Source: Candidatus Muiribacterium halophilum
GTDB lineage: Bacteria > Muiribacteriota > Muiribacteriia > Muiribacteriales > Muiribacteriaceae
NCBI GenBank assembly: GCA_002869225.1
Contig: PKTG01000122.1
Span: forward strand, 32,071-96,070
DNA: 64,000 nt
Direction of reading: 5' to 3'
This document shows, piece by piece, positions 5,627 through 45,233 of the stretch (within the stretch, counting starts at the first letter, position 1; every line of letters starts with the position of its first letter). The position numbers and the translations under genes are program-made. Below the pieces are notes generated by a model, which made no database searches, had not been told where the DNA came from, and worked only from the letters and a program-made list of their open reading frames with translations.

Positions 5627-5631
5627 TTTAG

Positions 5632-23266: not shown

Positions 23267-24578
23267 TTTTGTTTCGTTTATTGGAATCTTTGTTTTACTT
23301 GGAATCGCTTATCTTTTATCGGATAACAAAAAGAAGATCAATTGGAAACTCGTTAGTTGGGGAATAGGTCTTCAACTTGTGTTTGCTTTTATTATTCTTT
23401 GGACAAAACCTGGTAGAGTATTTTTTGCATGGATAAAAGATGCTGTTGAAGTGCTTCTTGGTTTTACAAGAGCTGGTTCGGTATTTGTATTTGGAGGTCT
23501 GGTTGACAATATTGACTCATTTGGTTATATTTTTGCCTTTCAGGTCCTTCCAACTATAATTTTCTTCTCATCCTTTATGTCAGTACTTTATCATCTCGGA
23601 ATTATGCAGAAGATAGTAGTAGTAATGGCAAAAGCTATGACAAAATTTATGGGTGCATCGGGAGCTGAAAGTCTTTCATGTGCTGCTAATGTTTTTGTTG
23701 GTCAGACAGAAGCCCCTCTTGTCATTAAACCTTATATTAAGACTATGACTAAATCCGAGGTCATGACTTTGATGACTGGTGGTATGGCAACTGTAGCAGG
23801 TGGAGTAATGGCAGCTTATGTAGGTATGGGAGTAGATGCTGGACATCTTCTTGCAGCAAGTATTATGTCTGCACCGGCAGCAATTGTCATGGCGAAACTA
23901 TTAGTCCCTGAAGTGGAAGAGTCTCAGACTGCTGGAGATGTAAAACTTCAACTTGAGAAGACTTCTGTAAATGTTATTGATGCAGCAGCATCAGGAGCAG
24001 CAGATGGATTGAAATTAGCGTTAAATGTAGCTGCAATGCTTCTTGCTTTTATAGCACTTATTGATATGGTGAATTTCTTTATTGTAAAACTTAGTGGATT
24101 GTTTCTTACTGATCCTCTTACATTTCAGGGATTATTATCTTATATATTTGCTCCAATAGCTTGGATAATGGGTGTTCCTAAAGCCGATATGTATGAGATA
24201 GGAAAACTTCTTGGTATTAAGACTGTCCTTAATGAGTTTGTTGCTTATGCTGAACTTTCCAAAGTTGTTGGAAAACTCTCAGAAAGATCAGTAGTAATAG
24301 CTACTTATGCACTTTGTGGATTTGCAAACTTTTCATCAATAGCTATTCAGATAGGTGGTATTTCAGCCTTAGCACCAGGTAAAAAACATATGCTTGCAAA
24401 ACTAGGCATGAAATCCATGATAGGTGGCACTTTAGCTGCATTTCTTACTGCAACTATAGCCGGAATGTTATATCAGGAACCAACAAAGGCTTTGGATAAT
24501 ATGAAAGACGGTAAGAAAGTCTCATGTAATACAGTATATGAAAAAGATATAGATTATTGGAGATTGATTAGTGATTGA
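23256..24578 (+). CDS. nupC: NupC/CNT family nucleoside transporter (track start 23232; ATG 23256 is more likely)
   Basis: Polytopic protein with CNT motifs (FVGQTEAPLVIKPY, GFANFSSIAIQIGG). Confidence 0.88.
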   Translation: MLNNFVSFIGIFVLLGIAYLLSDNKKKINWKLVSWGIGLQLVFAFIILWTKPGRVFFAWIKDAVEVLLGFTRAGSVFVFGGLVDNIDSFGYIFAFQVLPTIIFFSSFMSVLYHLGIMQKIVVVMAKAMTKFMGASGAESLSCAANVFVGQTEAPLVIKPYIKTMTKSEVMTLMTGGMATVAGGVMAAYVGMGVDAGHLLAASIMSAPAAIVMAKLLVPEVEESQTAGDVKLQLEKTSVNVIDAAASGAADGLKLALNVAAMLLAFIALIDMVNFFIVKLSGLFLTDPLTFQGLLSYIFAPIAWIMGVPKADMYEIGKLLGIKTVLNEFVAYAELSKVVGKLSERSVVIATYALCGFANFSSIAIQIGGISALAPGKKHMLAKLGMKSMIGGTLAAFLTATIAGMLYQEPTKALDNMKDGKKVSCNTVYEKDIDYWRLISD

Positions 24579-24846
24579 TAAAGATACTACTGTAAAGTCA
24601 CCTGATAATATTCTTTTTACTCAACTCGAGGATGAGATAATCATCCTCGATATAAACACTGGAAAATATTTTTCTTTAAACTCTACAGCTGCGGATATAT
24701 TTAGAAGATTTGTAGATGGTGCTTCGTTTGGTGAAGTCCTGGATGAGATGAAGATAAGATATCCGGAGGCTTCAGAGAGACAACTCGAAAATGATATAAG
24801 AGAGATCATTATAGATCTTCGTGAAAGTGAGATATTTGATTTTTAA
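24571..24846 (+). CDS. PqqD-family protein (RiPP recognition element type; candidate lasso B1)
   Basis: 91 aa. ILFTQLEDEIIILDINTGKYFSLNSTAADIFRRFVDGASFGEVLDEMKIRYP...ENDIREIIIDL is the canonical PqqD/RRE pattern. GTG start overlaps the nupC stop. Confidence 0.8.
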   Translation: MIDKDTTVKSPDNILFTQLEDEIIILDINTGKYFSLNSTAADIFRRFVDGASFGEVLDEMKIRYPEASERQLENDIREIIIDLRESEIFDF

Positions 24847-24848
24847 TT

Positions 24849-27800
24849 ATGTACGAGATATGTTTTTATAATCTGGACATGTTTTTTTTTATACAGGCAT
24901 TACTGTATTCTTTTTCAATAATTTTTTGTTATCAGATATTTAATAAAGAAAAAGATCCATCTTTCCTTTTTTCGATTTTTGCCATGGTAGTACTGATTAT
25001 CAATATATTTTATGCAGGAATCGGAAGATTAGCTGATTTTAATTACGACTTTTCTGTAAGGCTTTTCTTTTTTATAATAATCCTTATAGAGGCTTTTTTT
25101 ATTGCTTTTAAGGGGAAAGAAAAATATTTCTTACGGTCTGTTGTTCTTGTACTCCTTGCAGGAAGTGACCTTACTTATGATTGGCTTTACAGAGAGATAT
25201 TTGCAGCTTTGATGTGTTTTCCACTTTTTCTGATTTATTTTAACGATCTGAAAAAAATAAAAAGTTCAGGTGAGATCAAAAATTTAAGCAAGATATTTAT
25301 ATTTTTTGCATTACTTCTTATATTTTCTTTTATTGTTATCTACAAAATAGGTCAGAAGGATTTTAAGCGTTTTTATTCGGATACACAAAAAAATCTATTT
25401 GAGATAAAAGGTAGAATAGAACGGGAGATAGATAATAGTCATACTCTACTAAGACTGTTTCCTGGAAAAAAGATAATAGATATCTTAAAAGATCCTATAG
25501 AGAATAACGATGATAAATATCATATTTACGAAAGATTTGATAAGTTAATATCTTTAAATCAAGGTAGTATTGTATATATAATGGATAGAAACGGAACTGT
25601 CTTGTTATCTTCAAATCATAATGAGAAGGATAGTTTCGAAGATAAAAATTTTAATTTTAGACCTTATTTTCTGGAAGCACTTCACGGACAGGATTCATCT
25701 TATATAGCCGTTGGTAAAGTAAGCGGTAAAAGAGGGTTATATATTTCCAGTCCAATAACTGATAGTAATAATAAGGTAGTAGGTGTCATAGTCTTAAAAA
25801 GACCTATGGAAATAATCGATGATATGCTTGAGTATAATGTTTTTATAATAAGCGAGTATGGTCTTATATTTTCATCAGGAAATAAGGATGATCTTTTAAG
25901 ATTTATTACACCAAAAGATATAGAGGTAATAAATAAATTAAGAGACAGTCAGCAATTTTATCTTAGCGATATACCGACTCCGATATTATCTAAACCTCTA
26001 GAAGAAGGAAAGATTGTCATTGATGAAAGTCAAAGTATTTGGGAGAATCTCTTGCCGGTTAGTTTTAAGCTTTCTGTTAAAGGGTTTAATATAATAAAAT
26101 TACAGGAATTTGATGGATTACATGAAAGAAGAATCCTAATAGATATGTTCCTCTTTTTCTGTTTTTTCTTTCTTTTTACAATAATAGCACATTATCAAAA
26201 TATTAAAGTGATTATGATGAGATTGAGAAACTCAGAGAGAAATCTTGCCCAAACGTTGGACCTTATGGCTGTTTTGGTCTTTGAGGTGGATGAGAGCTTA
26301 AATCTTTTATATTATAACAAAGCTTTTAATGATTTCTTTGGATTAGTAGATGAAGTTTCAAATTTAAAGGATGTCGTTCATAAAGATTCTATTCCAGATA
26401 TCATCTATATTTTTGCTAAAATGAAAAGATCGCCTATTTCTGATTTTGAATTTAATTTTAAAGATCAAAAAGGTGATAATAAATTTGTATTAATAAGTTC
26501 AACAAGTTTTATAAGAAATTCAGCTTTGAATTATAGAGTTGTACTTTATGATATAACCGGGAAAAAAGAGCTTATGAAAGAACTCGAGACCACAGATAAT
26601 AAATATTCATATACTCTTGAAAGTTTACCGTTGCCTCTTGTTGAGATAGGTGATGATAAAAATATATATTTAGTAAATGAGAGTTTCGTCGATGAATTTT
26701 TCTTTGAAAGAGATATACCATGTCTGGTAGAGGATGTCTTTTCCGAAAATTCCTTAGAGAATATTAACAATGCACTTGAAAAAGTTTTTAAAGGAGAACG
26801 AGTAGATAATATAGAAATATCTAGAAGAAAAGGAAAAAGAGAAAAATATTTTCTTGGATCAGCAATACCAGTATACGAAAAAGGTCACTTGACCAAAGGA
26901 AGATTTATCTTTAATAATATTACATCTTTGATCAGATATGAAAATGAGATCAGGGATCTTTTTATAGCAGTAGATACCTCCCTTGTTGGAATAAGTATAT
27001 ATACAAAAGATCTTATAATTATTTATTGCAATCCTATGTTCGAGGAAATAACCGGATATAAAAAGAGTGAGATAATTGGAAATACATCGGATAAAATAGG
27101 TATGAATTTTATAATAAGGGAAAAAGGATGGGAAGGTGAGATAACTTTAAATGATAAACAGGGAAAAGAAAAAATAATGTATCAGAAAATATCACCTGTT
27201 TATTCAAACAATAAAAACATTACTGGTTATGTCTCTGTAATAATAGATGTCTCTGATAGAAAGGAACTTGAAAAAGATCTCTTAAAAGCTAAGAAAAAGG
27301 CTGAAAGATTGAGTGAGACTAGGAAGCTTCTTATGATGAAGATGTCTCATGAGATAAACACTCCTCTAAATAAGATCATAAATATCGCACAAATATCCAT
27401 AGATCAATGCGTAGATAAAAATACATCGGAAGATCTAAAAAATATCATCTCAGAAAGTAAATTACTCAATCAGATAATAAGAAATATTCTTATATTATCT
27501 GAAATAGAGATGAATGGCTATAATATGAACATGAAAGAGACTGATGTAATATCAACAATTGAGGATACTGTGTAAAATCATCAGGAGTATGCTAAAGAAA
27601 AGGGAGTAAAAATAAACTTTGAGAAGAAGGATAATAGAATCGAAGATGTGATTTTGATTGACAAAAATGTTCTTGAACTGGTTTCTGGAAATCTTATATC
27701 AAACGCGATTAAATTTTCAAAAGATGGTAATGTAGATATAAATATCTCTTTAGATAAAGAACGAAAAAATATATTAATATTGACAGTAAAAGATAACGGA

Positions 27801-28451
27801 GTCGGGATTGAAAAAAATAAACAGACCCTTATTTTTGAACCATTCTTCCAGGAAGAGGATAGTTTGAGAAGACAATATCAGGGTCTTGGGATCGGTTTAT
27901 CGATAGTTAAAAAGGTACTTATCAGTATTGGTGGAGATATATTTTTAGAGAGTAATAAAGGAACAGGTTAAATATTTAGAGCAAGAATACCTTATAAAAT
28001 ATCTGCTAATAAAAAGACAACTAAAGTAGAAACTGATAAAACAGAATCTAAATTAAAAAATATTGGAAAAATAAATGTACTTGTAGTTGATGATGCAAGA
28101 GAAAATCGTTTTATCGTAAAGACATATCTTTCAAAACTTGGAATAAAGCCTGATGAAGCTTCTGGAGGCGAAGAAGCTCTTTTGTTAATAAAAGATAAGG
28201 ATTATGATATAATATTACTTGACATACAGATGCCAGGAATTGATGGATATCAAGTTTTAGATGAGGCAAGGCAACTAGAGGAAGGTAGAAGTAAAAAAGC
28301 TTTTATTATTGCACTGACGGCACATTCTTTGCCTGAAGATGTTGAAAAATCAAAAGCAGCAGGATTTGATGAGCATATAAGTAAACCGATCAGAAAAAAG
28401 GAATTCTTAATAAATATTAAAGAAGTAATAGAAAGGATGATCAAAGGATGA
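24849..28451 (+). pseudogene. Hybrid sensor histidine kinase (multi-TM, Cache-like, PAS, HisKA, HATPase_c, REC) carrying two in-frame TAA codons (27573-27575, 27969-27971)
   Basis: Track ORFs 24849, 27648 and 28182 share one frame with no other stops. H-box MSHEINTPLN. N/G boxes NLISNAIKFS ... DNGVGI ... GLGIGLSIV ... GTG*IF. REC has VLVVDD ... ILLDIQMPGIDG ... HISKP. Confidence 0.8.
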
Positions 28452-28756
28452 ATAGATTTACCGTTGAGGTCGATATCGATCTGAAAGAATTTATTCCAGA
28501 TTTTATTGAGGGTAAAGTTAAATCTTTTAAAGATGTATCAAAACTTATCGAAAATAAGGATTATGAAGGCATTTACAAGATAGGTCACGGATTAAAAGGA
28601 ACTGGTTCTGCATATGGTTTTGACTTTATAACCGAATTTGGAAAAAGACTTGAATCTCTTTCTAAAGAAAAAGATGATAGCTCGATTCAGAAGCTGTGTG
28701 ACGAAGCGCTTGAGTATTTAGATAAAATAGATATAAAATATGTAGTGATTGAATGA
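28448..28756 (+). CDS. Hpt (histidine phosphotransfer) domain protein
   Basis: 102 aa with the HGLKGTGSAYGF phospho-His motif. Confidence 0.7.
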   Translation: MNRFTVEVDIDLKEFIPDFIEGKVKSFKDVSKLIENKDYEGIYKIGHGLKGTGSAYGFDFITEFGKRLESLSKEKDDSSIQKLCDEALEYLDKIDIKYVVIE

Positions 28757-29871
28757 AAAAAACTGATGTATTGATTGTTGGTGCAGGTATATCAGGATTA
28801 TCTTCTGCATTATTCTTATCAAAACATGGAATTTCCGTAACCGTAATAGAGAAAAAAGATAGAGTTGGTACAAAACCATGTGCCGGCGGATTGACATTTA
28901 AATCTTTAAAACTTATCAAAAGTCTAATAGAGCCAAACATAACAAGACATATAAAAAAAAATAAAATCGCATCTATATTTCTCAAAAATAAAAAAATAAA
29001 AAAAATATTATCACCTTTCCCTTATTCGATTATATTAAGAAGACAACTCGATATATTATTATACAAAAAGCTTAATAAAAAAAATTGTAATATCTATTTT
29101 AGTGAGAAAATAAAGTATATTGACCTAAAAAAAAATATTCTTATAACAAAAAGTGGAAAAAAGATAGCTTTTAAATTCTTAATAGGTGCTGATGGTGTTT
29201 TTTCTTTTGTCAGAAAAATGATCAAAGGAAATAGAAGATTTAAAAGCTTTTTCAATACGGCCAGTGCAGTAATTCCATCTGATTCTCTAAAAAAAAAGGT
29301 AGATGATATGGAGTTTTACTTTGGAGAAAATAAAAAAGGTTATAAATGGATTTTTAATGGTGGTTCTTTTTATTCCTTTGGTTGTGGTGGACATGAAGAT
29401 GTTATTTCTTTAGAAAAAAAACTATTAAGATCTATAAATAAAAAGACTTTAATAAAAAAAATAAAAATATATCATCATCCTATACCAATAAGTAATAGAA
29501 TTTTTTATGGGAATAAAAACGTTTTACTTCTGGGAGATGCCGCTGGTCTTGCGGGTGGATTATATGGTGAGGGTATTTTTAATGCACTTATAAGTTCTTT
29601 TGTTGCTGCAAATACGATTAGATTTCATTTTGCGGGTAATAAAGATCTTGATGATCTAGCTTATATTTATAGAAAAAACATGAAAATAGCGTTGGGAAAT
29701 ACTCTTGTTATTGAAAATTTATTAGCACAGGTGTATTATACTATTATGGAGATAACAAAAGGATATTTACTTTTGCCATTAATAAAAACACTTAGTTTAC
29801 CGATATTATACACTGGACATGAAAAATTTGGAATTCCTGGAATAAATAAAACTCTTGGAGATGTTTTTTAA
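28753..29871 (+). CDS. FAD-dependent oxidoreductase (geranylgeranyl-reductase-like)
   Basis: DVLIVGAGISGLSSALFLSKHGISVTVIEKK dinucleotide fold and LLGDAAG motif. Very Lys-rich with many A-runs. Confidence 0.65.
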   Translation: MKKTDVLIVGAGISGLSSALFLSKHGISVTVIEKKDRVGTKPCAGGLTFKSLKLIKSLIEPNITRHIKKNKIASIFLKNKKIKKILSPFPYSIILRRQLDILLYKKLNKKNCNIYFSEKIKYIDLKKNILITKSGKKIAFKFLIGADGVFSFVRKMIKGNRRFKSFFNTASAVIPSDSLKKKVDDMEFYFGENKKGYKWIFNGGSFYSFGCGGHEDVISLEKKLLRSINKKTLIKKIKIYHHPIPISNRIFYGNKNVLLLGDAAGLAGGLYGEGIFNALISSFVAANTIRFHFAGNKDLDDLAYIYRKNMKIALGNTLVIENLLAQVYYTIMEITKGYLLLPLIKTLSLPILYTGHEKFGIPGINKTLGDVF

Positions 29872-29886
29872 GATCACGGAGGATTA

Positions 29887-30258
29887 ATGAAGATACTCGC
29901 ACTTGATGATGATATTGCTATGACAAATCTGATCAAGGCATATGCAAAAAAATTAAATTATAGTGTTGAAGTAATAAACAATCCTGATAAACTTCTGGAA
30001 AAGATCGCAAGATTTAATCCTGATCTTATAATACTTGATCTTATGATGCCAAAAAAAGATGGTCTTTCTCTTTTAAAAAGTATTAAAGAAATGGAACTTT
30101 TCAAACACATCCCTGTTCTAATAATAAGTGCAAGGGCTAATCGTTCAACAATATTATCCTGTCTTTCAGCTGGTGCTATAGGATTTTTGCCGAAGCCTAT
30201 CGGACTTGACTTACTCTCAAAAAGACTTCATGATATATTTGATGAAAAAGAATCCTGA
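29887..30258 (+). CDS. Single-domain CheY-like response regulator
   Basis: ILALDDD ... LIILDLMMPKKDG ... PVLIISA ... LPKP receiver motifs. No output domain. Confidence 0.85.
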   Translation: MKILALDDDIAMTNLIKAYAKKLNYSVEVINNPDKLLEKIARFNPDLIILDLMMPKKDGLSLLKSIKEMELFKHIPVLIISARANRSTILSCLSAGAIGFLPKPIGLDLLSKRLHDIFDEKES

Positions 30259-30343
30259 TGAGATATATTTTCTATTAAAGATCTATTTTATCTTTTTATA
30301 TATATTTTTTTAAACTTCTCTTAAAATCTCATTTAAAGCTTCA

Positions 30344-30562
30344 TTGATAATTAGCAGATATCTTTCAAAAATCATATTATTTCAAGACGATTATGAAAGG
30401 TTTATATTAGAGCTTAATGTTAAAGGTCTTAAAAATTGTTTGAGAAAAAGTATTGCTAAAAAAGTAATGCTTGCAAACTGTGGACTTAGATATAGACTTA
30501 GGTTTATGGTTAAAAAAAATAATGTTGGAGCTCATGTGTTTCATGTGAGACTTGAGAAATAA
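30344..30562 (+). CDS. Minimal or truncated lasso-peptide leader peptidase (B2, transglutaminase-core-like)
   Basis: NCLRKSIAKKVMLANCGLRYRLRFMVKKNNVGAHVFHV parallels the B2 core pattern CLxRSLAxxxxLxxxGxxxxLxxGVxxxxxxxxAHAWVE. Cys32-His64 spacing is 32 residues. The frame opens only at 30314 with a TTG start, and it stops before where the third triad residue is expected. Confidence 0.5.
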   Translation: MIISRYLSKIILFQDDYERFILELNVKGLKNCLRKSIAKKVMLANCGLRYRLRFMVKKNNVGAHVFHVRLEK

Positions 30563-30563
30563 T

Positions 30564-31874
30564 ATGGCTTTATTAAAAGTTATAGAAAATAGAATAGAGA
30601 TACTAGATGATAGATTACTTAACCATCATATTTGTAAAGAATTTGAGGCTTTTTATTTTAATGATCATATAATCAATTGTAGTTTTAAAGAATTGTTTTC
30701 ATTACCTGAAAACAAGTTTTGTGGATTAATAATAAAAGATAATAGGATCTTTATATTTAGAGATAGATTCTCTCCGATTCCTCTTTATTATAATAAAACC
30801 AACTCTTCAGAATGGTTTGTATCTGAAAGATTTTCAAATTTGAAAAACTTCTTTTGTCATAAAAAAGTAACAAAATCAAGATTCCTAAAGATAAAAAATG
30901 GTAATACTGATGATCTAAGTGATACTTTTTTTAAAAAAATAAAGAGGGTGATTCCAGGTAAGATGATTCAATGTGCTAATGAAAAAGTCTTCAATGTCAA
31001 AAAAAGAATAGATGATGTAAATGGATTTGAGTATGATTTTAAAAGTATTATCAAAAATGAAACAATAAAAAAAGGCAGTTATGCGACTTTATTAAGTGAG
31101 GGAGCTGATTCAGGAGCTGTCTCATATACTCTCAAGGAACTGCGAATAAAAAATAAAAACTACTCAATAATATTTGACAAAGAATCAGAGACAATAATAA
31201 AAAGTAGGGACGAAGATGTTATATCTTTTTACCCGGAAGAACTAAAAGATTATATATCAGGTAAAGGTTTTGAGAGTATTGAGTATGATTTTAATCCTAA
31301 TGCCAATATGTTTATCCCTGTTCTAAAAAAAATGAAGAAAGATGGAATAACGGATGTGTTTATGGGAGTAGGTGGAGACGAGATACATGGAAGCGATTTT
31401 CCAGTGTCTTTTTTCTGGGATTGTATTATAAGGGGATACTTTGATCAGTTAAGATTTAGCAGAAAGTTCTTTTTGTTTGTATTATTAAACTATCCAAAGG
31501 GAATACATAGAGGTTCGTTTTTAAAATATCAGATAAATAGGGTAATTAATTCTAATTTTTTGATCTTTAACCTTGAAAAGATATGGAAGTTTTTTATAGA
31601 GTATGGTATATATGTGCACTTCCCGTTTTATGACTCAAGATTGATCAATAACATAATGAACTCATCAATCCTTGATATTGTAAAGTTTAATAAGGAGAGT
31701 GGATATCTCATAAAGCAAAAGGATCTTTTATTTTTAAACACTGTTTATAGGAAAAGAAATTTTCTTGATATAATCCTTTCAGAACTTGAACTGACAAGAG
31801 AAGATTATAAAGAATGGTTAGATGAAAGAGCTTGGCATCTTTTTAAAAAAGAACTTGAAAATTTGTGTAAATAA
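30564..31874 (+). CDS. Asparagine-synthetase-like lasso peptide cyclase (C protein)
   Basis: Degenerate PP-loop (LLSEGADSGAVS in place of SGGxDS) and the AsnB motif MGVGGDEIHG. Short N-domain without the Cys2 glutaminase nucleophile. Lies directly upstream of the precursor. Confidence 0.65.
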   Translation: MALLKVIENRIEILDDRLLNHHICKEFEAFYFNDHIINCSFKELFSLPENKFCGLIIKDNRIFIFRDRFSPIPLYYNKTNSSEWFVSERFSNLKNFFCHKKVTKSRFLKIKNGNTDDLSDTFFKKIKRVIPGKMIQCANEKVFNVKKRIDDVNGFEYDFKSIIKNETIKKGSYATLLSEGADSGAVSYTLKELRIKNKNYSIIFDKESETIIKSRDEDVISFYPEELKDYISGKGFESIEYDFNPNANMFIPVLKKMKKDGITDVFMGVGGDEIHGSDFPVSFFWDCIIRGYFDQLRFSRKFFLFVLLNYPKGIHRGSFLKYQINRVINSNFLIFNLEKIWKFFIEYGIYVHFPFYDSRLINNIMNSSILDIVKFNKESGYLIKQKDLLFLNTVYRKRNFLDIILSELELTREDYKEWLDERAWHLFKKELENLCK

Positions 31875-31897: not shown

Positions 31898-32038
31898 ATG
31901 GAAAAAAAACAAAATGAAAACAAAGTATATGTAAAGCCAGAGATCAAAGAACTTGGCGATGCTTCTAAACTTACCAAAGCAGCAACAGGTCCTGATGCTG
32001 ATGGCACTTGGGGACAGTTGACCACCCCGGTTTCCTGA
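31898..32038 (+). CDS. Lasso peptide precursor (46 aa; leader 1-27, predicted core AATGPDADGTWGQLTTPVS)
   Basis: MEKKQNENKVYVKPEIKELGDASKLTKAATGPDADGTWGQLTTPVS. It fits Yx2PxLx3Gx5Tx exactly (Y11, P14, I16, G20, T26). Asp is at core position 8. Not in the supplied track (<60 aa). Confidence 0.8.
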   Translation: MEKKQNENKVYVKPEIKELGDASKLTKAATGPDADGTWGQLTTPVS

Positions 32039-32045
32039 TATTTAA

Positions 32046-32621
32046 ATGTCAAATGAAAGTTTTTCCAGTTTCTCATTTATCAAAAAAAAATGTCTTTTTA
32101 AAAATATTTTTAAATATAGATATATCTTTGATATTCCTGATATAAAAGAAAAGATATTAAGAAAAAGATCGTTAAATGGGGATAGGTTCCTATTTATTGT
32201 AAAAGGATTGTTTTTTTTAATAAATAAATCTGATGATGACATCTTTATCGTATATTCACTTAACGAACCTGAGAAGGATGACATGGTCTGTTATGCTGCA
32301 CTTCCTTATCTTGGTGTATTTTTAGATGTTCCCGTGTTTCATGTATCAGGAGTCAGATTAGGAGAAAAGTATTATCTTTTTGCTGGTAAAAGTGGATCTG
32401 GAAAATCAACTATAGCAAAATATCTAAGAGATAATCTGGATGCGAATATAATAGCGGATGATTTTATTTTTCTAACAGAAAACGGACTTGAGACAACTGC
32501 TTTTTATATAAAAGAAGATCAACAATATTTAAAAAACGATGATTTTAATAAAGAAGATATTTTAGATGATATTACATATATTTTTATTGAAGACTTTAGT
32601 GAATCAAAAAAAATAAAATAG
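32046..32621 (+). CDS. HPr-kinase-related (HprK C-domain-like) peptide kinase
   Basis: FHVSGVRLGEKYYLFAGKSGSGKSTIAKYL...IIADDFIFL matches the HprK-related kinase core (P-loop followed by a DD motif). Begins 7 nt after the precursor stop. Confidence 0.65.
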   Translation: MSNESFSSFSFIKKKCLFKNIFKYRYIFDIPDIKEKILRKRSLNGDRFLFIVKGLFFLINKSDDDIFIVYSLNEPEKDDMVCYAALPYLGVFLDVPVFHVSGVRLGEKYYLFAGKSGSGKSTIAKYLRDNLDANIIADDFIFLTENGLETTAFYIKEDQQYLKNDDFNKEDILDDITYIFIEDFSESKKIK

Positions 32622-32629
32622 ATGAATTT

Positions 32630-32806
32630 ATGTTCATAATGAAAAACACCTATAATATGAATTTTCTGAAGGAAAAAGGAATAACTCAGAAAGTATATAC
32701 AATGATCGCTGAGTTTTACCAAAAAAATGATTTTATTAAAATAGATTATACAAAGGATTATCATGGATTTGAAAGATTAAGGGAGATAATGATTGAGTAC
32801 TCTTGA
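32630..32806 (+). CDS. 58-codon ORF: either a small protein or the displaced N-terminus of the downstream nucleotidyltransferase
   Basis: Begins 9 nt after the kinase stop and overlaps the next ORF by 14 nt in another frame. No motif recognised. Confidence 0.25.
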   Translation: MFIMKNTYNMNFLKEKGITQKVYTMIAEFYQKNDFIKIDYTKDYHGFERLREIMIEYS

Positions 32807-33671
32807 AAGGTTTCATAACAGAAAATATAGTGGGCGTTTAAACTCTGAGATTCAAAAGGAAAAATTGGGTGATATCTTTTTTCTTGTATCAGCTAAAATA
32901 AATCATATATTAAAAAAGAATAAAATAAGGTTCTTTTTTGTAAAAGGAATATTTCTTTCTCAGATACTATATAAAAACATTAACAAAAGACCGGGGAAGG
33001 ATATAGACATCTATATTCACCCCTCTGATAGATATAAAGCACTACGAGTGATCAAAAGGATAGGATACGATGTACCGCTTGGCTATAAAACAGTAAAGAG
33101 TTTCTACATGCCTTTTTGTATGGATTTTACAATAACTGATAGGAGTATTAATATCGATCTACATTTCTATCTTATAGATGTTGGAGAAAGAAGCCTAAAT
33201 GATTATTTTGAATCATTAGAAATCTTAGATATTAAAGGTATTAAATTTCCTGTTACGAAAAAAGAATTTCATCTTTATTATGTGATTCATCATGCTTTAA
33301 AACACAGGTTTGAATATACGGGTATGATGATAGATATTATTGAATTATATATGGAATTAGATAAAAGTATCCTGCTTATTTCTACTGAGAAAAAATTTAT
33401 AAAAAAAGCAAAAATACTTTTGAATAGGCAAATAAGACCAATAAAAGAAGGTTCACTTAAAGCCTATCTCATGAGTTTTTTGATCTTAAATAATGTTGAG
33501 AGATTAAGGTTTTTAATAAAACATTTTGTTTTACCAATGCCAAACAACTGTTTTATGGTGGATAAATTTGAATATACTGGTATATTTATTTTAATTTTTT
33601 ATCGGATTTATAAAATAGTTTATAATAGAATAGTTCAAACATTAAATAGTAGGTGTATTGATGAGGTCTGA
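32793..33671 (+). CDS. Nucleotidyltransferase family protein (PF14907-like)
   Basis: FVKGIFLSQILYKNINKRPGKDIDIYIHPSDRYKALRVIKRIGYD matches the KG...Y...R...DIDLLV...A...L...GY signature. TTG start, and the N-terminal region is shorter than usual. Confidence 0.75.
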   Translation: MSTLERFHNRKYSGRLNSEIQKEKLGDIFFLVSAKINHILKKNKIRFFFVKGIFLSQILYKNINKRPGKDIDIYIHPSDRYKALRVIKRIGYDVPLGYKTVKSFYMPFCMDFTITDRSINIDLHFYLIDVGERSLNDYFESLEILDIKGIKFPVTKKEFHLYYVIHHALKHRFEYTGMMIDIIELYMELDKSILLISTEKKFIKKAKILLNRQIRPIKEGSLKAYLMSFLILNNVERLRFLIKHFVLPMPNNCFMVDKFEYTGIFILIFYRIYKIVYNRIVQTLNSRCIDEV

Positions 33672-35971: not shown

Positions 35972-36097
35972 TTGGTATAAAGTATTAGCCATACGACGTA
36001 GTAATCTAAAAAGATATGTTGGAATTGTACATATAATATTATATCTCTGAAAAGGGAAGAAAGTAAGATCAATTATAAGAGATGACTTTTCAGATTT

Positions 36098-37216
36098 CTA
36101 TTTTGGTTGTTTATAAATTGAGATTAATTTATTTGCAACGGTTTTATATGAATATTGCGATAATATTCTTTTTCTGTTTTTAATCCTATAATCCTTCGCT
36201 GAATCGTTTTTTAAGATGGAAAGTGCATTATTTAATTTTTCTTTAAGATCTTTTAAATTGTTTTCTTTAAAAATGAGTCTTTTATCATGTACAAGATTTT
36301 TGAGTTCGCCAGAATCAGAACATATAACAATAGAGTTTGCATTAATAGCTTCGATTACCACTCTTCCAAATTGTTCCTTTATATTTGGCATTGTTCTTGA
36401 AGGAACTATAAGAATGTCGATGTTTTTATAAAATTCTAACATCTCTTTATGTTCCTTATGTCCTAAATATTCTATAGAAGGAGATTGAATTAAATTTTCA
36501 AGATAAGAACCTTTTCCTACTGCATAAAATCTTAATTTTTTATTAGACATAGATTCTGCAAGGTCAATAAAAAGATCGATTCCTTTAACCTCTTCAAATC
36601 TTCAGGCAAAACCAATTCTAATGATATTTCCTGATAAATTATTTCTTAAAGGTTTTGATCCTTCGATTTCGTTTACCGTCAATGGTATGATTTTATGAAT
36701 CTTTTTTGAGCCTTTTGCTCTTAGTACTTTTGAAATATCTTCAGTCAGTGGTAGCATTATTGTACAATTATTAATGACAAATCTTTCAAAAAAAGAAAAC
36801 GGAAACGGAAAATTTTTTTTTATATTTTGAGCACTGAAACATAGTAGTTTAGCATCTTTGTTTGTAAAACGTGAAAGAAGACATACTAGAAAGGATGTAA
36901 GACTATAAGGTTCCTCGATTATATGTATTACATCGAACTTTTTTAGGATCAGATAGAAGATACTTGGATATATTAAAGTTAGATTAAGTAGAGGTTTGCT
37001 TAGCCAAAGAAATAGAGGTATATTTCTTATTATTTTCATATTTTTATCATCATCATTTTTTTTAAAAAACTGCCATTTTCCAGCTTCTTTCCAAAATAAT
37101 GGAGTGAGTAAAGTGATATTAAATTCCTTTTTTTTAGATATATTCTGAAAAAGTCTTCTATAAGAATCTATTATTAGTGAATGAGATATTACCAGTATTT
37201 TTTTATTCGATTTCAT
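36098..37216 (-). pseudogene. GT4 glycosyltransferase interrupted by an in-frame TGA (36602-36604)
   Basis: Track ORFs 36602..37216 and 36098..36550 are in the same frame. The junction reads IRIGFA*RFEEVKGIDLFIDLAE, where GT4 enzymes have ...vGRl...KG. The EX7E region (KEQFGRVVIEA) is in the C-terminal part. Confidence 0.8.
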
Positions 37217-38507
37217 TTTGTTGCTGCTCTAAATTTATATGTTGTTTTGCATAAAATATACCGACGACTACACCGATAGTCCAATTCGCCATTATTGCGA
37301 TTAGCGGATCTTCTGCAAGAGAAAGAAACTGAAAAGCGAAACAGCTTGTTATTACAGTTAAAACAAAATTTTTTTCTGAAACGGAAATCTTTGTATAGTA
37401 TGATTTGATCATATCTCTAAAGAGAATTATCCAAAACCAAAGATAAAGGAAAAAGCCTATAACTCCCATCTCGACAAGGATTGTAAGATACATATTAAAA
37501 GCATTATTGAAAGGTTTTGAATCATAAGGTATTGCAGATCCAATGAAATTTCCTACACCAATACCTAAAAGAGTGTTTGCTTTAAACTGAGACCATGCAT
37601 CCTTCCATAACGTAACTCTTGAAAGAATCGATGTATCCGTAAGGTTTATAACCCCTACAAATCTTTCGTAAACTGGTGGATAAGCTAATATGGCAATTAT
37701 AACTATTATTGAAGTAATAAAATACAAATAGTTTCTTTTAAAGAAAACATTTATTAGCACAAAGGAAACAAGTAAAGAACTAATAGCCGTTCTCGATATA
37801 CTTGAAATAAAACCCATAAAACTTATCATAAGACATGCTTTTAAAAGAAAATTTCTTTTATTAAGTGAGAAGAACACGAGAAGTGGAAATAATACAAGCA
37901 TATATTCACCAAAAGCGTTTGGATTTCCAAACATCCCGTAACCTCTTAGGTTGGAACCTCTGAAAGGCCTAAAGAAAAAAGTATATAAGACATAAATGGA
38001 ACCTAGTGAACTTGAAAAGAATATTACTTTATTAAGATAATCTATCTTTTTTCTGTTTGTAAGAAGGTTGACAGTTATGAAATAGGCACATACAAAAAGC
38101 AGATAAGCCATTATCCTTTTAGATTGACCCGGTAATGTCGAGGGTCTTAAAGTGGATAAAGCGTATATTGCAAACAAAGTAAAAGGTAGTTCTATTGAGG
38201 TATGTATCAGTTTTTTTCTTTTACTTGTAAGTATATTAATAAATAAAAGGAAAAAAGTGACTATTATTAATGCGTTACTTGCGTATATATTGATGAATCC
38301 TATTTTTAAAGAAGGATTGAAGAGATTTGCCATAAGGAAAATCCCGACAAGACCGTATAGAAGTGAAAAAGAGAGTAATAAGACTGATGCAAAAATAATA
38401 ATGACAAAAAAAGCACTTTCATAATTTTGGTCAACCATTAAAAAAGAGATTAATGCACCAAATATTAAAAGAAAGATAAATATAAAAATAGCACTTTTAT
38501 TTTCCAC
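37203..38507 (-). CDS. O-antigen ligase/polymerase (Wzy_C-type) membrane protein
   Basis: About 10-12 TM helices with a larger loop in the C-terminal half. Sits in a glycosyltransferase/Wzc locus. Confidence 0.65.
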   Translation of the reverse strand: MENKSAIFIFIFLLIFGALISFLMVDQNYESAFFVIIIFASVLLLSFSLLYGLVGIFLMANLFNPSLKIGFINIYASNALIIVTFFLLFINILTSKRKKLIHTSIELPFTLFAIYALSTLRPSTLPGQSKRIMAYLLFVCAYFITVNLLTNRKKIDYLNKVIFFSSSLGSIYVLYTFFFRPFRGSNLRGYGMFGNPNAFGEYMLVLFPLLVFFSLNKRNFLLKACLMISFMGFISSISRTAISSLLVSFVLINVFFKRNYLYFITSIIVIIAILAYPPVYERFVGVINLTDTSILSRVTLWKDAWSQFKANTLLGIGVGNFIGSAIPYDSKPFNNAFNMYLTILVEMGVIGFFLYLWFWIILFRDMIKSYYTKISVSEKNFVLTVITSCFAFQFLSLAEDPLIAIMANWTIGVVVGIFYAKQHINLEQQQNEIE

Positions 38508-39501
38508 TGTGTTGCTCCTGGGTAAGCAGTATATAAAAGACTATAAAGATCGTTATAGCAATGAAAAAAGAGATTAGTTCGTTTCGCATTATTATCATGG
38601 AAAATCCAGCTATACCAGCTATGATCTGTAATAGAAACAATATTCTCGATATGCGATTTTCCGGGATCCCATTTTTCAAAAGTGACATTGAAAATGTGGA
38701 TTCACTTCTGACACTGTTTAAAAGATTAGCCATAGGTATCATAAAAAGCAAAGAAAGTATTGTAAACTTTAACTGGTTATGCAGTGATATATAGGCAATA
38801 ACAGAACCATACCATAGATAGAAATTTCTTGTAGGAGTGATTTTAGCAGGATGGGACGTATAGGTCTGAAGTGATAAGATCGATACACCAAGAACGAGAA
38901 ATATCTGAGAGGAGAGTATCTGTTCCAGAAATAGAGTTATGAAAAACAGGTTTATTAATACAATACCTGTAATAAGTAAATTGTTTCCTGTATGTTCTTC
39001 ATTGTTGTAGAAGATCATTTGGAAAAATACAAACCATAAAAAAGTCAAAGGTAAAGAGAACCATAGATTTTCTGAAAAAAAATCGATATTTATATTGTTG
39101 TAATATGCCAGATATGTGTTAAAAGCGGAGAGAAGTGTTATGCTAATCTTTCTGCTTTTAATAACAAACGGCAGAAAAATATTCAAGATCATTATTATCA
39201 TAAGAGAGTTGAAGAAATTACTCTTTTCTGTATAGAATTCAGGTAATCTTTTGTTAACATAAAGACTTATAATCATTGATAATAGAAAGACTGGAAATAT
39301 TATAAGTGCTGAATAACCTTTTAAAGTAGGAAAAGGAAAGAGACTATTTTCTTCGGGTGCTGCAAGCAGGTTAAATCTTCTGGCAATTCTAAGAAGAATA
39401 TTTGCAGCAAATTTTGTTAGTATATATGCTAGTATTATACTTAATAAATATGTTTTCAATTTAAAAGACCCCTGTAAAGATCTAAAATTTTTCCAGCACA
39501 T
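38497..39501 (-). CDS. Polytopic membrane protein, distantly WecA/MraY-like with degenerate catalytic motifs
   Basis: Colinear resemblance to WecA landmarks (ARRFNLLAAPEEN...P..KGYSAL; NNEEHTGNNLLITG where WecA has NMVDGIDGLLGG). The protein has only a single Asp. Confidence 0.35.
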   Translation of the reverse strand: MCWKNFRSLQGSFKLKTYLLSIILAYILTKFAANILLRIARRFNLLAAPEENSLFPFPTLKGYSALIIFPVFLLSMIISLYVNKRLPEFYTEKSNFFNSLMIIMILNIFLPFVIKSRKISITLLSAFNTYLAYYNNINIDFFSENLWFSLPLTFLWFVFFQMIFYNNEEHTGNNLLITGIVLINLFFITLFLEQILSSQIFLVLGVSILSLQTYTSHPAKITPTRNFYLWYGSVIAYISLHNQLKFTILSLLFMIPMANLLNSVRSESTFSMSLLKNGIPENRISRILFLLQIIAGIAGFSMIIMRNELISFFIAITIFIVFYILLTQEQHSGK

Positions 39502-39545
39502 TTTTTATCAGTATAATTTTCTTCTATATGTTTTCTTGCCTGATT

Positions 39546-40574
39546 TCATAGCTGATTTCTGTATTCGTCATTTTCAAATAGATTTTTTAATGCATCTTTT
39601 AGATGGTCAACATCTTTTGGAGGTACTTTAATACCTGTCTTTTTATCAATGTTGACCTCTTTCATTCCGGAGTCAACATTTGTACTTATAACTGGAATCG
39701 AACACGCCATGGCTTCAAGTTGTACTATTCCAAAAGCTTCGGATGTTTCAATAGAAGGTAACACAAATATATCAGATGAGTTTAAAATTGCTTTTAATTG
39801 AACATCATCAGCTTCCGGTATGAATATTATTCTCTTATCTTCCATTGACTGTGCTTTTAAAGTAGAATAATAAGGACCATTTCCTACTATTATTAGATTA
39901 TAATCACCATCGATTTGTTTAAACGCATCAACTAGAAAACTTACTCCTTTATAGTATACAAGTCTTCCAACAAAGACAGCGTTTTTTGAGTTTTCTCCAA
40001 GAAATTCTTTGATTCTTTTTATCCTGTCTAAGAGCTCTTTATCTTTTTCGAAACTATCTATATTAATCCCATAAGGGATAATCTTAACTTTTTCCTCAAA
40101 TTCAGGAAGTATATCAGAATATTGAACATGATAAGGAGTGGCCGCTATTATGGCATCTGCTCTTTGATATATCTTTTTCATCAAAGGCTTATAGAATTTA
40201 TATACAAATTTTTGTGCAACTATATCTGAATGATGACTAATAACAAGTTTCTTATCTTTAGGTAATCCGGCCATTTTCATCAATAGATGAGCCGATGGAT
40301 TTGGCATGTGAATGTGATATATATCACTATCATCTCCTAAAAAGGAAAAAAACATTGAAAGTGAAAAAGGAGTTGAAAAGACCTCAAATAGTTTGCCGTT
40401 TCTTTTTATTGTCACGTTTCCTTCAACCTCTTTTGATGAGAAGAAAGAATCGTTAAAGACTTCCACTGTTAATTCTTCAACCTCGTTTTTTATATTGTTA
40501 ACCAGTGAGAAGAGATGATTTTCAATCCCTCCTTTATATGGAGGATAGTATTTGCCTATCTGTGTTATCTTCAT
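39546..40574 (-). CDS. GT4 glycosyltransferase
   Basis: GGIENH N-terminus and EX7E region (PSIETSEAFGIVQLEAMACSIPVIST). Confidence 0.85.
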   Translation of the reverse strand: MKITQIGKYYPPYKGGIENHLFSLVNNIKNEVEELTVEVFNDSFFSSKEVEGNVTIKRNGKLFEVFSTPFSLSMFFSFLGDDSDIYHIHMPNPSAHLLMKMAGLPKDKKLVISHHSDIVAQKFVYKFYKPLMKKIYQRADAIIAATPYHVQYSDILPEFEEKVKIIPYGINIDSFEKDKELLDRIKRIKEFLGENSKNAVFVGRLVYYKGVSFLVDAFKQIDGDYNLIIVGNGPYYSTLKAQSMEDKRIIFIPEADDVQLKAILNSSDIFVLPSIETSEAFGIVQLEAMACSIPVISTNVDSGMKEVNIDKKTGIKVPPKDVDHLKDALKNLFENDEYRNQL

Positions 40575-40580
40575 TATATA

Positions 40581-40943
40581 TTATCTACCCCAATCCTGTT
40601 GTATTGAATAATTTATCTTTTCAAGTGTCCTTATAAGTTTATCCATATAACCTCCGCCTGCCGTGAAGGAATCGTTAAGAAAGATAAAACCTATTACCAC
40701 AAATGAAATGACTATACTCCAGAAAAACACAAGAAGATGCGTCTTTTTCTGTTCGTGTAGTTTAAGAATAAGTAGTCTTAGTTTTATCTCACAAAGACCT
40801 AGTGTAGAACAACTTTGTCCTTTTTTGAGTTTTTGAGTTTTCTCTTCCGGAATATTACAGTTTATACTTTTAATTGATTTAGAATATTCAAAATATATAC
40901 CAATAGCTATACCTAAAGCAATTCCTACGAAAAACTCTAGCAT
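40581..40943 (-). CDS. Small two-TM membrane protein, unknown function
   Basis: ORF tightly packed between two GT genes, with hydrophobic segments at residues ~1-20 and ~75-95. Confidence 0.4.
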   Translation of the reverse strand: MLEFFVGIALGIAIGIYFEYSKSIKSINCNIPEEKTQKLKKGQSCSTLGLCEIKLRLLILKLHEQKKTHLLVFFWSIVISFVVIGFIFLNDSFTAGGGYMDKLIRTLEKINYSIQQDWGR

Positions 40944-42016
40944 AAGATTACCTTCTTAATATTTTTGTTGTTTCTGATTATATCAAATTTCTTTTTATTT
41001 TTCATCCAAAAAGTATTACATTTAAAATTAAATCCATAATAATCATCAAATACTTGTCTTATTTTTCTGGATAAAGATTCCGGTTTTAATGAAACGTAAT
41101 CTAAGACAAAAGGAAGTGAGCTTTTTTTGTGGAATATCCCTGTAGCGGTTGTTAGTATAGGTTTTTTGTATGAAAGAGCTTCTATATTAGTCCTACCAAA
41201 ACTCTCTCTTTCTGATAGAGTAAGAAAGAGGTCGCAGTTTGTATAGATCTTAGATATATCTGTTAAAAATCCATGAAAGAAAACCCTATTTGAGACGTTG
41301 TTCTCAATAGCTTTTTTTAAAAGGATCTCCTTATAAGGTTGTTGAGTTAGATATGGTTCCTCTCCAAAGATATGTAAAGTGTAATCATCATCTAGATATT
41401 TCATTGTATCTATTGCTATATCTATATTTTTTAGTGAGGTTAGGTGAGCCACCATTGCAAGTTTTTTAGTTTCAGAGTTTTTAAGTTTTATATTGTGTAC
41501 ATTTTCCACTGAATTAAATATAGTTTTAGTCTTAAAACGTGGAAACTGTTTCGCAGTAAGGTTGGAATTGCATATTACTATTTTAGTGAATAAAGAAAGA
41601 AAATAGAAAAGTGTTTTAATATATTTATTATTTAATATATCCCTAAAATGCCATACTATCTTTTTTCTTATCATCAATGAAAGGAGCAAACCCGTAAGGT
41701 GCATCTTGATTCCGTTTGAATATATAATATCGAATTTATCATTAGAAATATTATTTTTTATTTTATATGCGTATTTAACAAAATTAAAAAATGAAAATAT
41801 ATTAAAACTTTTTCGGGATAATTTATTGAAATCAACGTCAGGATAAACAACTGAATATTTAATGTTTAATTCCTTTAAGGAATCGGTTAGATTTCCAGGA
41901 AATGGAAGTATGATTTTGTATATCAGATCAGGATTATGTTTTATAAAAGATAAAAGACTGACCTCAGCCCCGCCTATAAACCCGACGGGGTTGAGTATCA
42001 GTATTTTCTTATTCAT
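40937..42016 (-). CDS. GT4 glycosyltransferase
   Basis: PVGFIGGAEVS N-terminus and EX7E region (SERESFGRTNIEALSYKKPILT). Confidence 0.8.
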   Translation of the reverse strand: MNKKILILNPVGFIGGAEVSLLSFIKHNPDLIYKIILPFPGNLTDSLKELNIKYSVVYPDVDFNKLSRKSFNIFSFFNFVKYAYKIKNNISNDKFDIIYSNGIKMHLTGLLLSLMIRKKIVWHFRDILNNKYIKTLFYFLSLFTKIVICNSNLTAKQFPRFKTKTIFNSVENVHNIKLKNSETKKLAMVAHLTSLKNIDIAIDTMKYLDDDYTLHIFGEEPYLTQQPYKEILLKKAIENNVSNRVFFHGFLTDISKIYTNCDLFLTLSERESFGRTNIEALSYKKPILTTATGIFHKKSSLPFVLDYVSLKPESLSRKIRQVFDDYYGFNFKCNTFWMKNKKKFDIIRNNKNIKKVILC

Positions 42017-42017
42017 C

Positions 42018-44255: not shown

Positions 44256-44256
44256 A

Positions 44257-45132
44257 TTAGAAATCCTCCTTTGAGATAGTCTTCACATTTTTTGCGCCAA
44301 CAAATATATTTGAAAACTTTTCAATTGTATTGGTAAGCATATCAAGAGCGGATCCTCTGTTTTTTGGTATAAACAGTATATCTCCCGGTAAAAGCGAAGG
44401 GAAGTCCTGATATCTGCCTCTTTGCATTACGTTTGCAAGATTTATGTTTAGTTTTAAAACCTTTTCTTTTTCTTTTCTGAGTATAATAGCATAATTCAAA
44501 GCAGCTCTTTCTTTTGGTTTTGACAAAATAGCAAGATCAAGCGGAGATATTGTATCATCATAATATACTTTGAAAGGATTGTTAACTTCACCTACAACAT
44601 AAATATACGGAAGTTCTTTTAAGATTATTGTATCACCATCTTCAATTATTGGATTGTTCATATAATCACCATGTTTCATAAAACTACTATAATCATATGA
44701 TCGCATTTTCTCACCATTTACCACTAGGATTTTATACTTATCAGAGCTTTCCAGAAGTCCACCAGCCATATTTAATGCCTCAGATAATCTTATTTTTTTA
44801 TTAAAGCTAAATTTACCTTCATTTTTTATCTCTCCTGATATATTAAAATGAAAACCGTCGGTATTTAAATATATAAGAGGGCTTTTTATGACATCAGGAT
44901 CTAGTCTTTTAAAGATCTCATCTTTTATCTGATTTAATGTCATGTCTTCGACATTAAATCCTCCTATATAAGGTAGAATGAGTTCATTTCTGTAGTTGAC
45001 CTGAAACTCCTCGTTTATCTCTTCCTGTCCAAGTACATTAAAAACAGTTATGTGTACTGAATCCCCATAGCTTAATGAATGTGCAAGAAGTGATGTTAAG
45101 ATTATGATTATTAGAAGTATTGTTTTTCTCAT
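44257..45132 (-). CDS. Wza-like polysaccharide export protein (Poly_export + SLBB)
   Basis: Signal peptide MRKTILLIIIILTSLLA after an AGAGGGA RBS. GDSVHITVF... and later GDTIILK/GDILFIP SLBB-like motifs. Confidence 0.75.
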   Translation of the reverse strand: MRKTILLIIIILTSLLAHSLSYGDSVHITVFNVLGQEEINEEFQVNYRNELILPYIGGFNVEDMTLNQIKDEIFKRLDPDVIKSPLIYLNTDGFHFNISGEIKNEGKFSFNKKIRLSEALNMAGGLLESSDKYKILVVNGEKMRSYDYSSFMKHGDYMNNPIIEDGDTIILKELPYIYVVGEVNNPFKVYYDDTISPLDLAILSKPKERAALNYAIILRKEKEKVLKLNINLANVMQRGRYQDFPSLLPGDILFIPKNRGSALDMLTNTIEKFSNIFVGAKNVKTISKEDF

Positions 45133-45233
45133 AAATCCCTCTCTAAATATTTTTATTATTATTATTATCGTCATCGGGCTCGTCTAATTAAAACAAATAA
45201 GCGACGATTTTTAAAATTACCGGTTCTCTGTTT

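Follow-up and report, generated by a model that had tools for sequence, protein, structure and literature searches.

Two lasso peptide systems offer the closest described parallels to a locus in a 64-kb stretch of DNA from Candidatus Muiribacterium halophilum (termed here the window; GC content ~30%; all coordinates are positions within it). In the paeninodin cluster of Paenibacillus dendritiformis (padeCAKB1B2D), as with ThcoK and SyanK, a homologue of HPr kinase is found directly after a precursor ending in Ser. The kinase carries a His-Lys-Asp-Asp motif that is required in lasso kinases (PMC9266682). In the pseudomycoidin cluster of Bacillus pseudomycoides (psmCAKB1B2ND) the kinase PsmK has a metal site formed by D158/D159, and PsmN, a nucleoside triphosphate (NTP) transferase of an uncharacterised family, is required for the presence of hexose on the phospho-Ser (PMC6993621). 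Pseudomycoidin is the precedent for both polyphosphate and hexose on a C-terminal Ser. Related kinases also occur in cassettes recognised by the models HprK_rel_A (TIGR04352), HprK_rel_B (TIGR04355) and PqqD_rel_X (TIGR04353).

A compact lasso peptide cluster with a kinase and a nucleotidyltransferase

The locus is a divergent yet recognisable, compact class II lasso peptide cluster. On the plus strand the order is response regulator, putative leader peptidase (B2), putative cyclase (C), precursor (A), kinase (K), nucleotidyltransferase (N) and an open reading frame (ORF) similar to heparinase II/III (Table 1). Homology and gene order support its assignment as a lasso peptide cluster comprising the precursor together with putative B1, B2 and C genes. 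The earlier note had placed the kinase and nucleotidyltransferase genes directly after the precursor, and this is where they lie (ORFs 32046-32621 and 32793-33671). With K and N following a precursor that ends in Ser, the arrangement follows the logic of paeninodin and pseudomycoidin (PMC9266682, PMC6993621, PMC8498205). For a gene set of this kind the prediction made in the earlier note is a standard and reasonable one: to judge from these genes, the lineage probably produces a lasso peptide whose terminal Ser is phosphorylated, and by analogy a further group is possibly attached to the phosphorylated Ser. Taken whole, i.e. that this is a compact and divergent class II cluster, that K phosphorylates the terminal Ser, that N possibly decorates it, and that the lesions seen in this assembly are not a property of the cluster, this is the reading we favour, with moderate confidence.

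With paeninodin the locus shares the order C-A-K and the split of B1 from B2, in addition to a His-Lys-Asp-Asp kinase gene adjoining a Ser-ending precursor. It differs in that B2 is placed before C and is very short, at 106 amino acids (aa), the B1 candidate is 5.7 kb away, and the D exporter is absent. The kinase is distant and smaller (253 aa, compared with 250-310 aa in most members of the family) and is frameshifted in this assembly. The ring is predicted to be Ala1-Asp8, and the host is an uncultured, low-GC organism whose nearest relatives are Candidatus Muiribacteriota metagenome-assembled genomes (MAGs). With pseudomycoidin it shares K, an NTP transferase with a DxD motif and the C-terminal Ser. 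However, N comes directly after K with overlapping stop and start, whereas psmN lies between B2 and D; N also lacks the ~70-90 N-terminal residues of longer homologues and is ~22% identical to a Paenibacillus homologue (locus L049). Most relatives of the kinase match the models of the HprK_rel_A cassettes, but the kinase of the window scores below them, and the PqqD protein of the window fits a lasso PqqD model best.

Table 1. Positions of the cluster genes, the lesions and the neighbouring genes in the window.
Feature	Position	Strand	Remarks
Precursor A, 46 aa	31898..32038	+	lasso leader motif and core pattern; below the lasso_leader_L3 cutoff
HPr-kinase-related kinase K, 253 aa when intact	32046..32806	+	split in the window into ORFs of 191 aa (32046-32621) and 58 aa (32630-32806)
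Poly-A run, frameshift site	32606..32613	+	A8 in the window, A9 in five related assemblies
Nucleotidyltransferase N, PF14907 (NTP_transf_5), 292 aa	32793..33671	+	E 2.1e-21, 77 bits, cutoff 31.2
Putative compact lasso cyclase C, 436-440 aa, asparagine-synthetase homologue	30552..31874	+	SEGxDSG PP-loop
Putative B2 leader peptidase, 106 aa in relatives	30242..30562	+	TCA>TAA at 30311-30313 in the window, Ser24>stop
PqqD-family protein, 91 aa, probable B1/RRE leader-binding chaperone	24571..24846	+	Pfam PqqD E 7e-13, 49 bits, cutoff 23.4
Hybrid sensor histidine kinase, 1200 aa in relatives	24849..28451	+	nonsense at 27574 and 27970, giving ORFs of 908, 107 and 89 aa
Hpt protein	28448-28756	+	Hpt domain match
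FAD-dependent oxidoreductase, geranylgeranyl-reductase family, 372 aa	28753..29871	+	TIGR02032 E 2e-40; FAD_binding_3
Single-domain response regulator, 123 aa	29887..30258	+	Pfam Response_reg E 6e-25
Heparinase II/III-like protein, 733 aa	33770..35971	+	Pfam Hepar_II_III_N, Hepar_II_III_C
Private nonsense codons	14935, 27574, 27970, 30312, 36604, 39548, 47397, 53232		comparison with five assemblies

The precursor and its processing proteins

The precursor consists of the leader MEKKQNENKVYVKPEIKELGDASKLTK followed by the predicted core AATGPDADGTWGQLTTPVS. The leader (YVKPEIKELGDASKLTK) carries YxxPxIxxLGxxxxLTK, i.e. a lasso leader motif of the YxxPxLxxxGxxxxxTx type with Thr at position -2. 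The core starts AATGPDAD8, so that core residue 1 is small and there is an Asp at position 8 (positions 7-9 being allowed); it is predicted to form an Ala1-Asp8 ring. The NCBIfam model lasso_leader_L3 gave 16.5 bits with this precursor, where the cutoff is 19. The earlier note had the core ending ...TTPVS, and this can be read directly in ORF 31898-32038; the final residue is Ser46 (core Ser19), encoded by TCC at 32033-32035 and followed by the stop codon at 32036-32038. The precursor is identical in the other near-identical assemblies.

The nearest related clusters are those of two Candidatus Muiribacteriota MAGs (loci L005/L008 and L006/L007), with about 27-40% identity at the protein level. 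Alignment of the precursors reveals a common junction, with LT(G/K) ending the leader and x7D opening the core, in the window, L005 and L006/L007. All three lineages have the order A-K-N, and C-A-K-N wherever the contig reaches far enough. In the window lineage, as in L005 and L007, C is preceded by B2; the L006 contig is too short to show B2. The core of L006/L007 (SGGGTNSDALWTQYNPSLS) ends in Ser, as do the precursors of the Paenibacillus locus L049 and of L025, and one Paenibacillus locus among the kinase hits contains a classical paeninodin-like precursor that likewise has a terminal Ser. A scan for the precursor pattern in 61 kinase loci gave few credible matches beyond the Muiribacteriota clade, L049 and L025, although the pattern is narrow, so that negatives are uninformative. 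Word-indexed searches with the kinase and nucleotidyltransferase found the same lineage only, and a profile search with the cyclase added nothing beyond the protein of L005 and some ordinary asparagine synthases. In jackhmmer searches of kinase loci from public genomes we found 48 PqqD-like and 18 PF14907-like ORFs, with a few loci containing two.

The cyclase is 29-31% identical to those of L005 and L007, and the L007 orthologue (31% identity) passes the Pfam Asn_synthase threshold with 37.9 bits against a cutoff of 21. B2 is 40% identical to the B2 of L007. The reading frame that remains in the window (30344-30562, 72 aa) retains the Cys (..NCLRKSIA..) and His (..AHVFHV..) motifs. The best NCBIfam match of the B1 candidate is lasso_PqqD_Strm (E 1.2e-12, below cutoff), and not PqqD_rel_X. 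Neither the premature stop in B2 nor the distant B1 candidate figures in the earlier note. A scan for promoters and terminators gave counts that were not above those in shuffled sequence.

The kinase gene is divided by a frameshift

The earlier note described a short kinase of 191 aa. The ORF does have that length, but only because of the deletion of a single nucleotide, as relatives with A9 encode 253 aa. It starts 8 nt after the precursor and contains the P-loop GKSGSGKST. Its sole close homologue is a 253-aa protein (P0001, 99% identity) that is equal to the 191-aa and 58-aa ORFs joined together (...SESKKNKIDEFMFIM...), and the JGI assembly likewise encodes a 253-aa kinase. In a profile of the kinase family from which the query was excluded, the 191-aa ORF matches positions 29-201 and the 58-aa ORF positions 207-262, of a total of 265. 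The kinase gene is cut by a 1-nt deletion (A9>A8), and the 58-aa ORF is the C-terminal piece of the kinase. Two other assignments of the 58-aa ORF, as a B1/RRE protein or as the N-terminus of the nucleotidyltransferase, are rejected; it matches the C-terminus of the kinase family and not the nucleotidyltransferase.

The frameshift cuts the kinase after Lys189 and removes about 64 residues from the C-terminus. In an alignment-based AlphaFold2 model (predicted TM-score 0.76), which replaced a single-sequence model with a predicted local distance difference test score (pLDDT) of 35, residues 191-253 form helices and a strand with pLDDT of about 78-94. The truncated protein would therefore lack part of the modelled fold and is presumably inactive. 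A -1 slip on A_AAA_AAA, either ribosomal or transcriptional, would be expected to restore exactly the wild-type kinase sequence.

The putative catalytic residues all lie in the first (191-aa) piece. By alignment His99, Lys120 (in the P-loop, G114-T122) and Asp138/Asp139 correspond to the His-Lys-Asp-Asp motif of the lasso kinases, and D138-D139 correspond to D158/D159 of PsmK. An exhaustive search of 1.84 billion representative sequences found 30 proteins at E<=0.001 including the query; the others are distant, with a best E of 1.4e-7, and are mostly 250-310 aa in length. Amongst these 29 relatives there are matches to HprK_rel_A and HprK_rel_B in 23, and to HPr(Ser) kinase and Pfam Hpr_kinase_C in 20. 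One of the aligned relatives has an N-terminal PqqD domain of the lasso type. The family profile matches structures of HPrK/P (1ko7 with E 6e-7, 1jb1/2qmh and 3tqf) together with phosphoenolpyruvate (PEP) carboxykinases, while a search of the Protein Data Bank with the single kinase sequence gave generic P-loop matches only. When the AlphaFold2 model was submitted to Foldseek, all structures found at E<=0.001 were PEP carboxykinases or HPrK/P, except for an unrelated chain ranked tenth. That K is related to HPr kinase is indicated by its transitive homology, its His-Lys-Asp-Asp motif and a predicted fold similar to PEP carboxykinase and HPrK/P.

The nucleotidyltransferase is compact and complete

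The start of N overlaps the end of the kinase gene by 14 nt. Alignment with homologues including that of Paenibacillus L049 identifies the motifs KG...GKD70-I-D72-I, INIDLH (DLH) and KH. In the earlier note the gene appeared shortened or frameshifted at its N-terminus, a version in which the kinase would be naturally short. The PF14907 match does begin at profile position 61, and longer homologues carry about 70-90 additional N-terminal residues that have no counterpart in the N of the window. However, N has an unchanged start and a length of 292 aa in all related assemblies, and a profile of the long homologues found no such N-terminal segment in any frame upstream of N. The homologue in L005 is similarly compact (305 aa), and L006 retains the same 14-nt overlap between K and N. 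Given also that the 58-aa ORF matches the kinase C-terminus, and that the intact alleles yield a 253-aa kinase and a 292-aa nucleotidyltransferase, the proposal of a short kinase and a broken nucleotidyltransferase is refuted. On sequence comparison N is complete and naturally compact for its clade, with the catalytic DxD retained. In drawing the parallel with pseudomycoidin we assume that PsmN belongs to PF14907; the source paper gives no Pfam accession.

Lesions in this assembly

Five assemblies carry intact alleles (ERZ794998, ERZ794999, SRR5894287, SRR5894289 and JGI 3300007102). The comparison was based upon ten near-identical loci in these assemblies (L001-L004 and L068-L073) that cover 56.6 kb (window 1303-58067). 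Four metagenome contigs that carry P0001 match the window at 99.8-99.9% along aligned stretches of 13.7-20.8 kb; two of them span the full 20.8 kb. In three of the four the single indel relative to the window is an extra A behind 32605 (i.e. A9 rather than A8). The fourth (L001) has the extra A and, near 36000, also a pair of small gaps within an intergenic block that is rearranged. We note that ERZ794999 alone has ~20 dense mismatches after the heparinase-like gene, at about 13939-14024 of L001 (window 35984-36069); this resembles a short stretch that has been rearranged or recombined more than it does a set of point mutations.

There are 44 differences private to the window, comprising 43 substitutions and one indel. 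Of the substitutions 29 are C:G>A:T and 14 are of other kinds; the corresponding fraction among differences between the other assemblies is 10/51 (Fisher p = 3e-6). In terms of effect 8 of the private changes are nonsense, 23 missense and 11 synonymous. The genes hit by nonsense changes include the hybrid histidine kinase (twice), two glycosyltransferases (36604 and 39548), an aspartate carbamoyltransferase-like gene (47397) and one for a Bmp-family lipoprotein, and roughly a sixth of the genes in the window are truncated. N has a single private change, Pro155>Thr at 33255.

This spectrum looks unselected and of the type produced by oxidised guanine, arising from DNA damage, an assembly artefact or a mutator lineage, and damage to the template or an artefact of assembly is more likely than a viable mutator. 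If the lesions were real, the strain would contain a decaying and non-functional cluster, with K and B2 as pseudogenes and perhaps a loss of oxidised-guanine repair, and would make no phosphopeptide or only traces by slippage. We regard this as rather unlikely. The excess of C:G>A:T changes, the eight nonsense codons and the presence of only 11 synonymous changes are what would be expected of very recent mutations, yet 8-oxoguanine damage to template DNA typically leaves this same spectrum. Moreover the truncation of some one-sixth of genes, including one like aspartate carbamoyltransferase, would if extrapolated to the entire genome be hard to square with a viable population, and contigs from two related runs carry intact alleles. 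Since at least five near-identical assemblies have the intact alleles, the lesions in the kinase and B2 genes are most probably sequencing or DNA-damage errors, or very recent mutations, and not a property of the cluster.

A possible pathway

Modelled on paeninodin and pseudomycoidin, a pathway with four steps can be proposed. K would use ATP to phosphorylate the side chain of Ser46 (core Ser19), probably on the linear precursor before removal of the leader. B1 and B2 would then cleave the leader after Leu-Thr-Lys, and C would close the Ala1-Asp8 isopeptide ring of AATGPDADGTWGQLTTPVS. Finally N (PF14907) might add a further group to the phosphate, which in pseudomycoidin is a hexose. What is established is the gene content, the motifs, the gene order and the homology, and the proposed chemistry of K and N is deduced from these.

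A number of observations weigh against phosphorylation and decoration of the terminal Ser by such a cluster. The window as written has both K and B2 disrupted. B2 matches Transglut_core3 (E 1e-4 to 3e-4) and lasso_biosyn_B2 (E 0.005) below their cutoffs, and the cyclase is likewise weak and below cutoff for Asn_synthase, asn_synth_AEB (E 9e-10) and the lasso cyclase model NF033535 (E 2e-4). The B1 candidate, which lies 5.7 kb upstream of the other genes of the cluster, is assigned to it from proximity alone, and no ABC exporter is found within the cluster. The kinase itself has no direct Pfam or NCBIfam match to HPr kinase, with only P-loop matches and one that is weak to PEP carboxykinase, so that its relationship to HPr kinase is transitive only, and the Foldseek TM-scores are modest (0.3-0.5). 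Evidence for the function of PsmN was obtained in vivo (PMC6993621), and activity of PsmN-type enzymes in vitro has never been shown (PMC8498205). Lastly, the C-terminal Ser taken alone is weak evidence: of the two distant precursors, one ends in Ser and the other, that of L005 (SGDRGTQDALYGRYRPGQSPE), ends ...SPE. The pairing of K and N is kept in L005, so that K and N are not always accompanied by a terminal Ser.

This last observation could suggest that K and N act elsewhere, i.e. on Thr3, Thr10, Thr15 or Thr16 of the core, or on another substrate such as the polysaccharide of the adjacent locus. An exopolysaccharide locus and the heparinase-like gene adjoin N, and most loci with HprK-related kinases have no obvious Ser-ending precursor alongside, although these are weak negatives from a narrow pattern. 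On the other hand K comes directly after the precursor, and N after K, in each of the clade's three clusters, whereas conservation of the neighbourhood does not extend to the polysaccharide genes. Furthermore homologous kinases target the C-terminal Ser in every case studied (PMC9266682, PMC8498205). We consider action at other sites or substrates improbable, and continue to favour the terminal Ser as the probable site.

Expression of the cluster from intact alleles would add an uncultured low-GC lineage to those with phosphorylated, and possibly phospho-decorated, lasso peptides. The parts encoded in this clade are very compact, with B2 at 106 aa, the cyclase at 436 aa, the kinase at 253 aa and the nucleotidyltransferase at 292 aa, and with no exporter. 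The cluster would also supply a kinase and a PsmN-type enzyme of unusually small size. For annotation, what appears as a short kinase plus a small ORF is one frameshifted gene, and apparent pseudogenes in this assembly should not be over-interpreted given the many probable errors of the damage type.

Neighbouring genes

A full phosphorelay lies between the PqqD gene and B2-C-A-K-N (24849-30258), comprising the histidine kinase (with dCache and PAS domains), the Hpt protein and the response regulator. It may regulate the cluster. The same interval contains the gene for the flavin adenine dinucleotide (FAD)-dependent oxidoreductase, a homologue of which (29% identity) is directly upstream of B2 in L007 (2932-4065); in the window the response regulator intervenes. 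It is possible that the oxidoreductase serves as an extra tailoring enzyme. This would be one route by which the clade could make a lasso peptide with an undescribed decoration, the others being nucleotidylation or some other substitution of the phospho-Ser, under two-component control. Were this the case, the minimal K and N enzymes would help to define the function of the PsmN type. We think such a product quite improbable, and retain phosphorylation of the terminal Ser with possible decoration by N as the preferred reading. We note separately that core position 11 is Trp in both clusters having the FAD gene and Tyr in L005, where the fetched locus is without it; with only three clusters this may be a coincidence.

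In L005 an ORF for a 304-aa multi-pass hydrophobic protein with no Pfam match (5064-5978) is found between the kinase and nucleotidyltransferase genes, with no counterpart in the window lineage. This membrane protein may serve to export the peptide or to confer immunity to it.

On the far side of N the cluster is adjoined by the exopolysaccharide locus (36098-46457, minus strand), with GT4 glycosyltransferases, a Wzy-like polymerase, a GNVR/ParA-type regulator of chain length, Poly_export and a GGDEF protein. The heparinase II/III-like gene has no counterpart in the L005 cluster, and is more likely to be part of the exopolysaccharide locus.

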